Part shown: positions 2,733 through 30,278 of the stretch, in pieces
Position numbering within the stretch: position 1 is the stretch's first letter
Layout of the letters: each line of letters begins with the position of its first letter
Assembly (NCBI GenBank): GCA_004296925.1
Contig: SCVI01000039.1
Coordinates: 1 to 43,300, forward strand
Direction: 5' to 3'
DNA from: Patescibacteria group bacterium
GTDB taxonomy: Bacteria > Patescibacteriota > Minisyncoccia > Phycocordibacterales > Phycocordibacteraceae
DNA: 43,300 bases
Notes under the pieces: model-generated
The model's database searches: none
Told to the model about the DNA's origin: nothing
Seen by the model: the letters and a program-made list of their open reading frames with translations, nothing else
Translations under genes and position numbers: made by a program

Positions 2733-4268
2733 CTACTTTCCTCCAGTTATAAATTTCAGGAATTTATAACTGCTTTTATACCTCCATCTTGAATAAAGCT
2801 CTTTTAAAAATGACCTCTTTTCAGGATTCGGTTCATGGACGATTTGTAAACTTAGGTTTGGATATTGCGACTCTATGAGCTGCAAGACTAAGTTAGTTAT
2901 TTTTACAATATCCTCTAAGACGCCTGGCAAGGTGTATACGCTTACCGACGGAATCGGATGAAGTCTGTGTAGTGGGTTCGCGCAAATTGCAAAACTTGAT
3001 TCACGGATGGCACCCCAGCTTCCGTGCGAAAAAGTAGATGTCCAATCGTAATACGCGTCGTATATATCTTTGCACCCAGCTTCTTCGCTCAACTTTCTTA
3101 AAGTAGAGCTGGTCCAATGACCCAGTTCTATGTCCGAAAATTCTTCCCAACGGTCTTCGTTCGCGATTTGCTTTAAAAACTTCTCGTCTATGAATGCTGG
3201 CTTATCATTCGAATCTCTCGCTTTTAAATAGCTGAGTTTCATTTGACCAATCCCATAATTTCTAAATTCATTCCAGATATTTGAATCATCCTTCTTTATT
3301 AAGTATGCGAGCGTTATAAAAGATTCAACACATGACCGGAGAGTCAATCTGCCGACAGCACCTCGAGAAAGGTTTGTCACAACCATCTCATCTAAAAGTC
3401 GTAAAACGTAGAATCCAGTACCAAAAATGGTGTCGTGTTTAGCATCAATAGCACTCGAATTATCTGTTTTTAGAAAGTGCAGTAAAAGAAGATGTCTTGC
3501 CCGATTCACTTGAGTGTTGGTTATCTTAATCTTATCTCTCCTTTGTTCTTCTCTAGGCATAGGAGCACATAGCGTTGTTTGCAGACATGCTTTCCAAAAA
3601 TCTTCCGGCCATTCGCTTGCTTCAGCGGGGAAAGATATTTCGCTTGCTCGTATCGAAGGACGCACTTCGCGCATATCGCCCTCGTTAGGGTAGTTCACTA
3701 TCGGAGAACCCATTGATCGGGGCATAGAGAATTTTCCGGTAAGGATTAAACAAAAAACCTTTACCCAGCGACAATCCGTAGCTTCTTGAGATTGGTGGTC
3801 AAGAGTAACCAGAACACCCTTCGTTAGAAAGTCAGCTACTTGTGCCTCAGTCCCAGCCATAACATTCCCAAATACTTCTTCCCAATCCTTGTATGCGGGA
3901 AGTCGAGGAAAGAGAACCAACGTCTGGAGGATTGATTTGGCATGAGGGTGTGAATCATGAAGTAAATTTAAGAGTGCAACTCTATCTGCTTTTGGCCAAG
4001 AGGCGATGCCTGATATCGTAACGTCCGAAAGTGCTTCGTGACCCATGACGAAGGCGCCAACTTTACGGAAAATATCTAAAGCCTCCTCTCTTGTTAAGTT
4101 TGCGATGAGAAGCACCGCCCAAAGCATTTGAGGCATTCTGTCATCCTTCCACGAAGAAGGAGTCATGGGCATTTGACGGATAGGCGGTTTTAAAACAGAA
4201 CCCTCTCTTTTATGCTTTGATATATTACTCGATCTGTTTTCTTCTTTATCTTTTTTAGATTCTGACAT
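2733..4268 (-). CDS. Large hypothetical protein, C-terminal DUF5677/HEPN-like region
   Basis: 511-aa ORF from ATG 4268; R-S-x-x-E helix and Y-x-x-x-S-x-x-x-H motif (YDWTSTFSHG) resemble DUF5677; family call is tentative. Confidence 0.6.
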   Translation of the reverse strand: MSESKKDKEENRSSNISKHKREGSVLKPPIRQMPMTPSSWKDDRMPQMLWAVLLIANLTREEALDIFRKVGAFVMGHEALSDVTISGIASWPKADRVALLNLLHDSHPHAKSILQTLVLFPRLPAYKDWEEVFGNVMAGTEAQVADFLTKGVLVTLDHQSQEATDCRWVKVFCLILTGKFSMPRSMGSPIVNYPNEGDMREVRPSIRASEISFPAEASEWPEDFWKACLQTTLCAPMPREEQRRDKIKITNTQVNRARHLLLLHFLKTDNSSAIDAKHDTIFGTGFYVLRLLDEMVVTNLSRGAVGRLTLRSCVESFITLAYLIKKDDSNIWNEFRNYGIGQMKLSYLKARDSNDKPAFIDEKFLKQIANEDRWEEFSDIELGHWTSSTLRKLSEEAGCKDIYDAYYDWTSTFSHGSWGAIRESSFAICANPLHRLHPIPSVSVYTLPGVLEDIVKITNLVLQLIESQYPNLSLQIVHEPNPEKRSFLKELYSRWRYKSSYKFLKFITGGK

Positions 4269-26003: not shown

Positions 26004-26570
26004 TTACTTTCGCCCAATAATAATTCTATGTGAGAACTCAAGAATGTCTCGGAGTAACCGATCTCTTGCTTCGAGTCTTTCTCGAAAGGCCTTTGTTTCT
26101 AAGACCGCGTAGCGAAGCGGTATCGCTGAAACGTGTTCAGCTTTTCTAATTGCCTGCGCAATACGAGGGTCGTGAGGACGACGCGCAACGATTAATAAGT
26201 CCACACTGCTTTGCGACTCATTTGCTAAAATTCCTGTAGCAATTACAAGAGTAAGTGCGGGTACACCAGTGAATGCTCGCGCGAGTGTTCTATCGTCAGG
26301 GAGTGTTGCTTCTCCTAAAAACCTTTTCAAAGAATCAGCAAGTGGGTGAGATTTGTTAAATGCATACGTCGTTGTCTTCCCACTTTTTCGGGCGTTTAAA
26401 ATACCAAGTCTTGCGAGTGTTGATGTCTCACGAGAAATCGTTACTTTCGATCCTCCGATAGTACTCGCAACGGTGGATGCCGGGGCGCGTTCATCAGTAT
26501 TGAAAGCAAAAAATTTCAGAACCTTGAGACGTGTGGAAGAAGAACAAAATCGGACGACGTCTGGAAACAT
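26004..26570 (-). CDS. Winged-helix protein with nucleotidyltransferase-like C-terminal domain
   Basis: STRLKVLKFF..HTH..LARLGIL; SSVDLLIV motif; TACAAT 6 nt before the ATG. Confidence 0.75.
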   Translation of the reverse strand: MFPDVVRFCSSSTRLKVLKFFAFNTDERAPASTVASTIGGSKVTISRETSTLARLGILNARKSGKTTTYAFNKSHPLADSLKRFLGEATLPDDRTLARAFTGVPALTLVIATGILANESQSSVDLLIVARRPHDPRIAQAIRKAEHVSAIPLRYAVLETKAFRERLEARDRLLRDILEFSHRIIIGRK

Positions 26571-26697: not shown

Positions 26698-26737
26698 GGT
26701 CTAGTATAATTATGCTATAGCATAATTATACTAGACC
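26698..26737. repeat. Perfect 40-bp palindrome with no loop
   Basis: GGTCTAGTATAATTATGCTA|TAGCATAATTATACTAGACC. Confidence 0.95.
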
Positions 26738-27121
26738 GTTAGATATTTGTGTAATTGACAGAGTCGGTGGCAGCGGACACGATCGCTGTGAGATTTTTTG
26801 AATAATAAATAGATGTGGTGAAAATAGATACACCACGAGGTGTCTGTCTAATCAATTGATTGGTCCCGCGATAAAATACATATCGTGGAATGTGTGTGGC
26901 ATTAATACGTTTAGTGATGCCGAATACATAATAAAGATTTGGGATGTGAACTGAGAAATGTATTGATGCACGAATGAGTGAAGTACGTTTAAAAAATAAA
27001 TAAAAACGCAGAACAGGTACATGAATAATAAATGCTTGTAAAAAACTCTTCGTAGTTTTTTTGAAAATTAGTACCTGATCTTCAACTTCCCCACTTTCAG
27101 CGTTTGTAATTTTTTATCATA

Positions 27122-27152
27122 AAAAATACCCAGACATATGTCTGGGTATTTT
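27122..27152. terminator. Bidirectional terminator (rplJL)
   Basis: AAAAATACCCAGACATATGTCTGGGTATTTTT. Confidence 0.8.
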
Positions 27153-27206
27153 TGATTTCGAGAATTACCGCCTTGGTCGACATGTTCTCGTTTCGAAACC
27201 TCCTCG

Positions 27207-27357
27207 GTCCGTGTTCCTAACACGGACACCTACGGAAAAGTTGAGTAATCGTCTTAGACGAGTTCAACTTTTCCTCCACTGGCCCGCATGTTCTCATGAC
27301 GGGCACGGCTGGCAATGTGGAGTGCTCGCGTTACGCGAGCTCCACCTTGCCACCCGC
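27207..27357 (-). repeat. Two tandem ~76-nt units: rplL 3' end + antisense hairpin + small hairpin
   Basis: Second unit encodes GGKVELV* (27254-27277); see findings. Confidence 0.8.
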
Positions 27358-27732
27358 CTCCTCAATTTTCTTCTTGAGGGCTTCTGCGTCTTCTTTCTTC
27401 ACACCTTCTTTCAATACTGAAGGAGCTGCATCAACGAGATCTTTTGCTTCCTTAAGACCAAGCGCAAGAGCTTCCTTAACTACCTTGATGACTGCAATTT
27501 TTTGCGCACCAAAATCAGTAAGCTTCACGGTGAAAGTTGACTTCTCTTCTGCTGCCTCTCCTGCTATTGCGGGACCTGCAACTGCAACTGCTGCTGCAGA
27601 GACACCAAACTTTTCTTCAAATACTTTCACGAGCTCATGGAGTTCCATAACGCTCATTGTTTCAATTTTCTCAACGATGTCCTTGAACTTTGCAGGGACT
27701 TCACTTAGGGTTGCTTGTGTTTCGTCTGACAT
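27331..27732 (-). CDS. rplL: 50S ribosomal protein L7/L12
   Basis: [27 protein letters not shown] and GGKVEL motifs. Confidence 0.98.
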
Positions 27733-27757: not shown

Positions 27758-28264
27758 CTATGCTTTTTTCTCAGCAATTTGATTGAGCGCAATCACCATA
27801 CGCTGAATTGGCGAATTGATGATGTTTACAAACATACCTCGCAACATTGGTGTTGCGGGAATTTCTGCAACTTGCACCGCATCTTTCAGAGATAAGTAAC
27901 GTCCTTCTAATGCTCCTCCTAAAAAGCCAAGCTTGCCTTTAAACTTCTTTACGAAGCTTCCAAGGCTTCTTGCTGGAAGCGTTACATCGGTATCTTCAGA
28001 AGAAGTTGAGATGTAGGCCATAGCTACCTCACCTGGCATCTCAGGCATTTCGCCCTCATATCCTTTATCGGTAAGCGCTTTTTTAAGAAGTGTTTTTTTC
28101 ACGACAGTGTATTTCACACCATTCGTTCGAAGTGCGTCACGAAGCTCATTTGCTTCTTTCACATTCATCCCCTTAAACGCAACAAAAATAACCGACACCG
28201 CATTTGAAAGCGACTCAGTCACTTCTTTGAGTAGAGACTCCTTTTTTGCTCGAGTAATTGCCAT
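27758..28264 (-). CDS. rplJ: 50S ribosomal protein L10
   Basis: ELRDALR and YTVVKKTLLK motifs; adjacent to rplL. Confidence 0.95.
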   Translation of the reverse strand: MAITRAKKESLLKEVTESLSNAVSVIFVAFKGMNVKEANELRDALRTNGVKYTVVKKTLLKKALTDKGYEGEMPEMPGEVAMAYISTSSEDTDVTLPARSLGSFVKKFKGKLGFLGGALEGRYLSLKDAVQVAEIPATPMLRGMFVNIINSPIQRMVIALNQIAEKKA

Positions 28265-29479: not shown

Positions 29480-29525
29480 AACAGAGGTCCGACCTCTGTT
29501 TAAATTACAAAGGCCGGACCTCTGT
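29480..29525. repeat. Two REP palindromes downstream of RAYT
   Basis: ACAGAGGTCCGACCTCTGT and ACAAAGGCCGGACCTCTGT. Confidence 0.85.
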
Positions 29526-29543: not shown

Positions 29544-30221
29544 TCACTCATCCGTTGCATTTCGTAAAAAATTGAGGAGTTCCTCTAGGTCATTTTGTTC
29601 TTTCATAAAATCTGGGGCTTGATTATAGGCAATCAACTGACGCCATTGGCGCTCACCGACCGAATAATCATAAAAACTTGAATACGGGTAGGTCGCTAAA
29701 AATTTGCGCACCGCGTCGGGATCCTCAATCCCTTTTTCTTCCCAAAGTGGTTCAATAAGAGAGACAGGATTTAAATGTACATATGAAAATATGTATCGAA
29801 AATAAGGGTTCGTACCAACATGACGACTCTTAAAACGTCCCTGAAACAAAACACCGCTATGGGCGTGCTTGGCATTGAAATACATAGTATAGGCAGTTAC
29901 GACCTTTCTCATGAAGCGCGTAATCCCTTGATCTTCTTCTTGCCTCAACACAAAGTGAAAATGGTTAGGCATAAGAGTCCACGCCATAATACTGACGAGT
30001 GGTTTGCCGCGTACTTCTAAATCCATAATATCTGCAAAGGTCCGACCTTTGTATCTGCTAAGTAGTGCGCGAGTATCTACCGGAGCAATACTGTTTGCGA
30101 GAAAAAGGATAAGAAGTAATCGTTCGTAATCTTTATTTGAACGAAAGATTAAGTTCTTGTGAGCGCCTCGATTGTAAACATGGTATGTTTCCCCGATTTC
30201 GAGAGGTTTATCTCGTATCAT
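29544..30221 (-). mobile_element. REP-associated tyrosine transposase (RAYT/TnpA-REP, IS200-like HUH Y1)
   Basis: YHVYNRG, MPNHFHF (HUH), LFQGRFKS and YVHLNPV (catalytic Tyr) motifs; flanked by REPs. Confidence 0.92.
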
Positions 30222-30237
30222 CCAATAAGAATATCAC

Positions 30238-30278
30238 CCACCTCCCCTACAAAGGTCGGACCTTTGTAGGGGAGGTGG
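30238..30278. repeat. Extended REP palindrome upstream of RAYT
   Basis: CCACCTCCCCTACAAAGGTC-G-GACCTTTGTAGGGGAGGTGG. Confidence 0.85.

Follow-up and report, generated by a model that had tools for sequence, protein, structure and literature searches.

Stacked copies of the rplL 3′ end in a CPR bacterium suggest a family of small gene-end cassettes

Why is the 3′ end of a ribosomal protein gene followed by a recoded version of itself, and why does each version run directly into a sequence able to pair with it? The question is raised by the minus-strand gene rplL, which rplJ (27758-28264) precedes in a 43,300-nt stretch of DNA (the window) from a Patescibacteria group bacterium. The genome to which the window belongs (G000) is a metagenome bin of 787 kb, 44% GC and 129 contigs; relatives of rplL are present in 369 of 401 genomes of its order. 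The features of the region are collected in Table 1.

Table 1. Features of the rplL 3′ region in the window, in the order of transcription
Feature	Position	Strand	Description	Basis
rplL (ribosomal protein bL12)	27331..27732	-	133 aa, ends GGKVELA*	ORF list and translation
T1	27331..27354	-	Working last seven rplL codons and stop; 5′ arm of hairpin 1	Pairs with 27307-27330 in the fold
T1′	27307..27330	-	Inverted 24-nt arm complementary to T1; AC bulge, G bulge, one G.A mismatch	Covariation in alignment
m1	27281..27306	-	Small GC hairpin, 26 nt, core of unit 1, subtype a	
T2	27254..27277	-	Displaced recoded rplL-end copy, GGKVELV*	0 mismatches to degenerate terminus pattern; 6/7 residues
T2′	27229..27253	-	Inverted 25-nt arm matching T2	AC bulge as in T1′
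m2	27206..27228	-	Small GC hairpin, subtype b	
At least one older unit, decayed	27157..27205	-	Partial small-hairpin copy and terminus-like stretch	Repeat; rest read by eye
Intrinsic terminator of the rplJ-rplL transcript	27119..27156	-	19-bp stem, then T run	

The end of rplL folds into a hairpin (hairpin 1) with a 21-bp stem that holds the stop codon within a 3-nt loop. T2 begins 3 nt past m1. It carries five synonymous third-position changes relative to T1, and a different last sense codon (Ala in T1, Val in T2). A 2-nt AC bulge occupies the matching place in both arms. An earlier reading made from the letters of the window (the sequence-only reading) had described the terminus, its recoded copy, their 77-nt offset, the arms, the looped stop and the bulge, and all of them lie where it put them. 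The small hairpins that it saw after each arm are present too, but extend slightly wider (27306-27281 and 27228-27206, as opposed to 27282-27304 and 27207-27227). Because the start-to-start offset is 77 nt, T2 is out of frame with rplL, which rules out read-through into an extended L12. A third, decayed small-hairpin copy of 16 nt follows unit 2 (27174-27189 compared with 27280-27295, 81% identity). No T run comes after any of the stop-centred or small hairpins; the true terminator lies beyond them all, and in unit-free relatives it stands directly after the rplL stop.

The two units of the window resemble units of different relatives. By eye, m1 is identical at 25 of 26 positions to the small hairpin of genome G014; the entire unit 2 is 83% identical to the first unit of G023, and no matching stretch was found between the adjoining rplL 3′ parts of G023 and the window. 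As the sequence-only reading had claimed, the current end of rplL is richer in GC than the rest of the gene: the last 30 nt have a GC fraction of 0.67 vs 0.46 gene-wide, and GC3 is 6/7 in the last codons vs 0.39 for the gene. A sliding comparison of identity along rplJ-rplL showed nothing to suggest an imported tract. Further along, a long perfect palindrome (26700-26740) lies upstream of the 188-aa gene (26004-26570) that comes after rplL; a similar palindrome precedes the homologous gene in four other loci (L004-L007) and is probably an operator.

The array is real, and neither chance nor an assembly artefact. A 256-nt stretch folds at -119.5 kcal/mol, compared with -70.5 +/- 4.7 kcal/mol for shuffled sequences (z = -10.5; 0 of 200 shuffles reach it). 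Among 1,397 open frames of at least 100 codons in the whole genome, rplL alone has a downstream copy matching 6/7 residues of its own C-terminus, the next best being 12 frames at 4/7. Of 1,388 stop-centred hairpins scored genome-wide, that of rplL (-31.4 kcal/mol) ranks first in stability. The scan of the genome for stop-centred hairpins with recoded duplicates that the sequence-only reading had proposed thus puts rplL at the top, and rplK too has a recoded terminus copy and an antisense arm (see below). Tandem Repeats Finder reports nothing at rplL because the copies are too diverged. When the regions behind all G000 open frames were searched at nucleotide level for near-identical repeats of the frame's final 17 nt, there was no excess over a reversed-sequence control. 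Rfam returned no match at gathering score for the window stretch and eight related loci, and we take the low-scoring miRNA and sRNA hits for chance.

A recoded duplicate could also come from an assembly that fuses two strains, and the sequence-only reading had named such a chimera as the finding that would undo it. The genome is a bin of 129 metagenome contigs, and strain variants of the rplL locus co-occur in at least one sample, both of which speak for this explanation. However, when contigs from public runs were aligned to 26950-27650, a 24,796-nt contig built by a different assembler covered 27124-27650, and with it the array, with 0 differences, and a 162-nt contig of another study bridged both units (27214-27345) with 1 difference. 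The layout also recurs in closed single-contig genomes, such as G014. A chimera has next to no chance of being the explanation. Separately, five short contigs of the G000 bin (C99, C25, C60, C5 and C1) are GC-rich, carry strong hairpins at open-frame ends, differ from the 44% GC genome and may be contamination of the bin.

In the rplL 3′ flanks of relatives, both the number and the type of units vary, which the sequence-only reading had put up for checking. The duplicated terminus is present in 6 of 30 informative flanks in the genus (33 genomes), and most flanks consist of the stop, a short spacer and the terminator. Units of the window's kind (type 1) occur in G000, G002, G014 and G023. The rplL gene of G004 carries a type-2 unit with a 64-nt three-way-junction core, and that of G030 a type-3 unit with a 95-nt core; in G011 a perfect 36-nt palindrome is centred on the rplL stop and there is no duplicate. 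The same succession of gene end, inverted copy, structured core and direct gene-end copy follows rplL at 13 or more further loci of the candidate phyla radiation (CPR), whose cores fall into at least three types. A peptide-level scan of loci from the genus, from other families and from 80 metagenome contigs, in which background best matches mostly reached 1-2 of 7 residues, detected a downstream terminus copy at 12 of 117 loci; for species-representative genomes the count was 1 of 80 loci. No flagged locus belongs to a record whose title names an organism outside the CPR. Two further rplL cases (L008 and L129) are decayed.

Arrays of relatives also preserve different ends. At least three units are stacked in G014, one of them with the top of its hairpin deleted; by eye, the arm of this unit fits the G002 arm and not the codons of G014 itself. 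In G002 an older end, GGKVELS*, is kept beside the terminator. The ELS* ending is also found in three of four unit-free relatives of G002 (G032, G017 and G006), the fourth, G029, having ELA*. G023 retains an older end whose stop codon is lost. At another locus (L148), 300 nt past the rplL stop, two diverged super-units have a gene-end copy and arm that are identical at 31 of 31 positions (by eye) and cores that differ with compensatory changes, a sign of gene conversion within the array.

The inverted arm always fits the local terminus variant, be it VEL, VTL, VEF, IEL or AEL. Six type-1 units were aligned, and of the 21 stem pairs 9 have changed on both sides, a number reached by 0 of 500 shuffles, so the covariation of antisense arms with codons that the earlier reading had asked about is borne out. 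Of the cells of this alignment, 85.6% are paired, vs ~40% with the partner slid. The stems covary, and the AC and G bulges stay in place in G000 unit 1, G014 and G002, and partly so in G023 and in unit 2 of G000. The alignment thus shows that compensatory change keeps the pairing of arm and gene end. This pairing is either under selection or re-templated; quasi-palindrome correction is a known process able to re-template arms. The type-2 and type-3 cores keep 81-91% identity across hosts in which only 29-41% of the rplL third positions agree.

Is the unit confined to rplL? Type 1 is: blastn of the array against its own genome found no second copy of the unit, and none was found at non-rplL loci in 60 relatives. 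Type 2 is dispersed. A covariance model of its core, built without the arms, matched 91 of 151 genomes sampled from the order (E <= 0.01; as many as 13 hits in one genome when whole genomes were searched) and 5 of 151 genomes of a phylum-wide sample (E <= 1e-4), two of which belong to the window's own genus; the order-wide counts are from genome samples. Among the 20 best loci, five are at rplL ends and one at an rplK end, two (L339 and L351) adjoin recognisable tRNA 3′ ends, and most of the others have closing stems like a tRNA T-arm. G000 itself has one type-2 copy at its rplK end and five behind tRNA genes. The rplK copy (contig C41, ~4100-4240) follows a gene end ...TARSMGIDVK* and consists of a 7-nt antisense arm, the type-2 core and a recoded D-I-K-* copy; rplK of G045 (L353) has a like layout. 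G070 holds 32 type-2 matches in 70 kb, located 30-100 nt behind successive tRNAs and the tmRNA.

Gene-end copies were also sought in G000 without any core model. A direct copy of the last 16 nt (<=2 mismatches, <=450 nt downstream) follows 20 of 45 tRNA/tmRNA genes, and an inverted copy lies downstream of 13 of the 45; upstream, both counts are 0/45. The direct copy starts in the T-loop and stops at the last base of the tRNA, and it is exactly 19 nt long in 13 of the 20 cases. Several distinct, unrelated cores lie behind the tRNA genes. Because no type-1 copy occurs elsewhere and the type-2 model does not match the window's type-1 unit, the link between this unit and the dispersed family is one of layout, not of sequence, and rests on analogy.

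Some single loci add detail. The G000 tRNA-end copies lie within 100-200 nt downstream (for example at C95:11780-12070 and on C128, C115 and C30), and the space between a tRNA and its copy usually holds a terminator-like hairpin, the inverted arm and one of several structured cores. Behind the tmRNA of G070 (L380, contig C7; tmRNA at 3236-3632 of the locus) a type-2 cassette has an arm and a copy that fit the tmRNA 3′ end. Beside a type-2 core in another locus on this contig (L377, G070:C7:170000-176100), ARAGORN calls a tRNA with anticodon TTA, which reads UAA (2902-2975, minus strand); it could be a suppressor-like tRNA or a miscall.

Covariation marks the type-2 core as a real structure: in an alignment that, being model-fitted, favours structure, 99.5% of cells are paired and both sides have changed in 18 of 23 pairs (0 of 500 shuffles reach this). 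Such a core behind genes of one functional class makes host RNA function a serious rival, and one compatible with insertion. The units would be cis-acting 3′ trailers or 3′-UTR devices of tRNA, tmRNA, rplK and rplL, their copy number changing by ordinary duplication and loss, and the arm would pair with either the real end or the decoy copy, a proposed two-state switch of 3′ processing, of stability or of translation termination at the stop in the loop. In the three-way junction, a G.U pair that hardly varies (25 of 26 sequences) points to one acting strand, the sense of the upstream gene, as expected of an RNA. RNAalifold predicts a closing stem, with compensatory changes, between the inverted arm and the downstream copy, the cores are more conserved than the first and second codon positions of rplL, and no mobility enzyme was found in the searches described below. 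On the other side, units are unevenly spread: they occur in 6 of the genus's 30 informative rplL flanks and, for type 2, in 91 of 151 order genomes, and most relatives have a bare stop and terminator. Decayed and tandem copies exist, and one tRNA-Gln site is empty in one species and occupied by differing variants in others. By eye, pairing between the window's first arm and its second copy is poor. Moreover, because a terminator-like hairpin usually separates tRNA from arm, the arm of a cassette would be made only by read-through. We judge it unlikely that the units are such host devices.

Comparison of species and strains shows that cassettes are gained, lost and swapped. At the tRNA-Gln site, the tRNA of G032 is followed directly by flank, and in G000 and G017 this flank stands after the second copy; one cassette variant occupies the site in G017, G002, G006 and G003, another in G000 and G014, and a third in G027. 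A second study contains two forms of the window's rplL locus, one of which is the window's array with 1 difference. The other comes from a strain ~97% identical in rplL (9 differences in 326 nt); it departs from the window right past the palindromic hairpin tip, continues with a G002-type arm and another small-hairpin subtype (loose ends, by eye) and rejoins the window inside the second copy. In a third study, 135 letters replace the window's 61 between 27269 and 27331. No excised or free form of a cassette and no transcript was seen, and no RNA run was listed as containing the stretch. The proposal of the sequence-only reading that an element inserts at the 3′ end of the gene is still the best reading, given the relatives, rplK and the 20 of 45 tRNA/tmRNA genes; however, since the type-1 unit occurs only at rplL, the case that this unit is itself mobile is made by polymorphism between strains and between species and by its analogous layout.

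Could the same arrangement arise without an element? Replication template switching at a strongly transcribed gene end would create an inverted triplication, which tandem duplication and in-place divergence would then elaborate. The direct-inverted-direct order is the product of two such switches (PMC13334657, in part), the stop-centred perfect 36-nt palindrome of G011, with no duplicate, could be of this origin, and so could copies homogenised within an array, as in L148 (31/31, by eye). Yet the process leaves unexplained the conserved cores common to distant hosts and loci, the differing cassette variants at one orthologous site and the constant 19-nt copy at 13 of 20 tRNA sites. One core has already been seen flanked by copies of unrelated gene ends, and the mostly synonymous differences of displaced copies need separate coding histories. 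We regard this origin as quite improbable; in-place duplication, like assembly error, explains little.

The sequence-only reading had proposed an association with HUH/RAYT or IS110-type enzymes, and neither association was found. Y1_Tnp genes are present in 33 of 33 genomes of the genus, but across the order Y1_Tnp and the type-2 core are not associated (57/34/34/26, odds ratio 1.28, p = 0.5, assuming that both 151-genome samples are one and the same). The IS110 DEDD recombinase (PF01548) exceeds the cut-off in 0 of 33 genus genomes. Cas1, reverse transcriptase (PF00078, RVT_1) and the TnpB nuclease domain (PF07282) were each found in 0 of 5 copy-rich genomes. The lack of reverse transcriptase in those five genomes speaks against retroelements (DGR, retron or group II intron); for a diversity-generating retroelement (DGR), the repeat of just 24 nt is a further reason for rejection. 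The window has a Y1_Tnp (IS200/RAYT-like) gene of 225 aa (29544-30221, minus strand) with a weak RAYT match, flanked by two related palindromes at 29480-29500 and 30246-30270, a third copy of whose core lies inside the gene; in G017 a Y1 match lies ~2.8 kb from rplL, and the position may be conserved.

Tyrosine recombinases deserve separate treatment. Direct repeats that hold the exact target 3′ end are the signature of integrase elements at tRNA genes and rplL (PMC4701971, in part). The cassettes could therefore be miniature non-autonomous elements moved by the single Xer-type enzyme or by a helper integrase absent from the assemblies; the direct repeats would be attL and attR, and the arm, by analogy with CTX phage and integron attC, would let the single-stranded element fold so that it mimics the target site as a duplex. 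At tRNAs the repeat begins within the T-loop, the hairpins have conserved extrahelical bases, the variant strain joins two unit types at a palindromic hairpin tip, and four of five genomes checked have Xer-type PF00589 genes (one each in G000, where it is on contig C111, G123 and G140, three in G070). The fifth, G064, has 8 type-2 copies and no PF00589 match, which argues against such a mover, as does the lack of an integrase gene in or beside the examined cassettes, whose inserts of 77-220 nt hold no ORF. At the tRNA-Gly(ccc) of G070, the inverted arm is mismatched to the tRNA and both direct copies match it (by eye), which fits target duplication better than an att site borne by the element. 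To our knowledge, Xer enzymes act at dif and not at tRNA ends. In two limited scans, no attP-like copy was seen among the viral-contig matches listed: none of at least 80 loci found with a loose type-2 pattern was a true module (blastn), and the terminus pattern gave 11 loci, six of them phage-borne L12 homologues and the rest chance matches inside other ORFs (in L325, antisense in a 354-aa ORF). On balance, movement by a tyrosine recombinase seems to us an improbable though reasoned account. The six phage-borne homologues (L323, L324, L326, L327, L331 and L332) encode a protein ~38% identical to L12 that ends SAGGKVELK*.

What do the copies themselves record? In the last five codons of 13 flagged loci, copies differ from gene ends at 55 positions (13, 6 and 36 at the first, second and third codon position), a distribution biased toward third positions by the choice of loci through peptide identity. 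Of the differing codons, 29 are synonymous, including two-step leucine changes, and 11 are not. The set found through cores (rplL of G047 and G123, rplK of G045 and G000) has five synonymous changes and one conservative codon change (by eye). The freshest type-2 copies at rplL, in two cases, have identical gene ends (18/18 and 17/17). Some copies thus look like fresh duplicates, and others have diverged as if both had once been coding. The earlier view that synonymous divergence implies two ends that each once encoded L12 is accordingly upheld in part: the differences are mostly synonymous, but the test is biased and the fresh type-2 copies are identical. The companion idea that the element supplies a replacement terminus from outside is not general, because those fresh copies are identical and look like target duplication. 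The target-complementary arm that completed this picture is present, following the local gene end and covarying with its codons.

Taken together, the shared layout, exact borders, empty and variously filled sites, strain variants, tandem and decayed copies and patchy conserved cores make insertion cassettes the best fit. We therefore think that the region behind rplL probably consists of stacked "gene-end cassettes", two intact and one or more decayed, which belong to a wider class of insertions at tRNA, tmRNA, rplK and rplL ends in this CPR order. A unit would comprise the last rplL codons with the stop, the inverted arm that pairs with them and a short structured core, here a GC hairpin of 23-26 nt; in the class at large the order would be gene end, optional spacer hairpin, inverted copy, structured core and direct copy of the last 17-24 nt. 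A cassette would insert at the gene end and duplicate the last ~19 nt of its target, leaving the gene intact. The gene-proximal copy would be the working rplL end and the next copy an earlier end displaced downstream, with new units entering next to the gene and older ones decaying toward the original terminator. The inverted arm and the gene-end copy may pair when a single strand, either RNA or ssDNA, folds up, a pairing presumably needed for spread or maintenance, and units or arms may be exchanged between related genomes by crossovers at the hairpin tip. Against this preferred reading, the searches tied no recombinase, transposase or reverse transcriptase to the cassettes. Cassettes are also dense behind tRNAs, at about half of these genes in G000 and at most of them in the parts of G070 examined, and such density would fit host function too.

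A bolder form of the insertion reading, which we offer tentatively and think rather doubtful, is a gene-less mobile element that mimics its target. The arm would be its guide to tRNA, tmRNA and ribosomal-protein 3′ ends, in a natural kind of "home-and-rescue"; it would spread via host replication and repair or the lone Xer enzyme, copy the target end on insertion so that no gene is broken, have its arm re-templated at each target and leave a fossil record of ends behind rplL.

If the units are insertion cassettes, tiny gene-less DNA colonises the safest sites of a very small genome by copying the end of its target. This would bear on how CPR genomes of 0.6-1 Mb tolerate repeats, on target-site choice by DNA that has no known recombinase, and on the evolution of gene 3′ ends and their hairpins, where synonymous recoding driven by the arm would be a new force in codon choice. 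If they are host RNA devices, they would be a widespread, undescribed 3′-end control module of the translation apparatus in a major uncultured lineage. On either reading the conserved type-2 core, along with two other kinds of core, adds new candidate structured RNAs that have no Rfam match, and stacked displaced gene ends are a rare internal record of past alleles.

How do the cassettes compare with known systems? Tandem stacking at one site is known for integrase elements, and in CRISPR arrays new units join at one end and old ones decay. Tyrosine-integrase elements, for example Streptococcus ICEs, insert in the 3′ ends of tRNA genes or rplL and leave the gene intact between direct repeats of the exact target 3′ end (PMC4701971, in part). 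The same repeats occur here at rplL, at tRNA genes (20/45 vs 0/45) and at the tRNA-Gln site, where the flank of the empty G032 site follows the second copy. Those elements are kilobases long and encode an integrase, whereas the cassettes are gene-less, measure 77-220 nt and set an inverted target copy beside one of several unrelated structured cores. Casposons insert preferentially at a tRNA 3′ end and duplicate a long target segment (PMC6614799, in part), a likeness that extends to CRISPR integration. Here, no Cas1 was found in five copy-rich genomes, and there are no terminal inverted repeats whose sequence is constant, because the inverted arm copies the target.

REP/BIME-RAYT and IS200/IS605 systems likewise place imperfect palindromes past stop codons in transcribed 3′ regions and form mosaic arrays that vary between strains, and Y1 HUH genes exist in the genus. 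Unlike BIMEs, the type-1 unit is confined to one locus, its stem is the coding end of the gene and the statistical link to Y1_Tnp is missing; we know of no long target duplication in Y1 transposition. Integron attC and CTX attP sites share with the cassettes two imperfect arms, conserved extrahelical bases and a folded arm pair that copies the target site. They differ in that the target here is a gene end and not dif or attI, and no integron integrase, attI or single-stranded form was seen. As for the many dispersed copies typical of MITEs, the type-2 core is dispersed (up to 13 per genome, 91 of 151 genomes) and the window's type-1 unit is unique in its genome; unlike in MITEs, the inverted arm and direct copy vary by site, being copies of the local gene end, and the duplication spans 17-24 nt as against 2-10 bp.

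Home-and-rescue gene drives, engineered with Cas9 in insects, combine a guide with a recoded rescue end of an essential gene (PMC7968924, in part). This is the logic that the sequence-only reading had proposed for rplL, namely gene-end insertion, a recoded rescue copy and a target-complementary guide; the drives, however, are designed, and fresh cassettes have gene ends that are identical, not recoded. Quasi-palindrome correction, template-switch mutation and small inverted triplications can make or repair an inverted copy of an adjacent sequence in one step (PMC13334657 and PMC8604942, both in part) and could explain arms that match the local gene end, but they are a process and not an element, and they do not account for the shared cores. 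A full-text search, with subscription journals and supplements outside its scope, found no description of recoded rplL-end duplicates or of CPR tRNA-end cassettes. Each known system thus shares single features with the cassettes and none shares the whole. The units behind rplL, with similar ones behind about half of the tRNA genes of G000, suggest an undescribed family of tiny gene-end insertion cassettes that leave genes unbroken.
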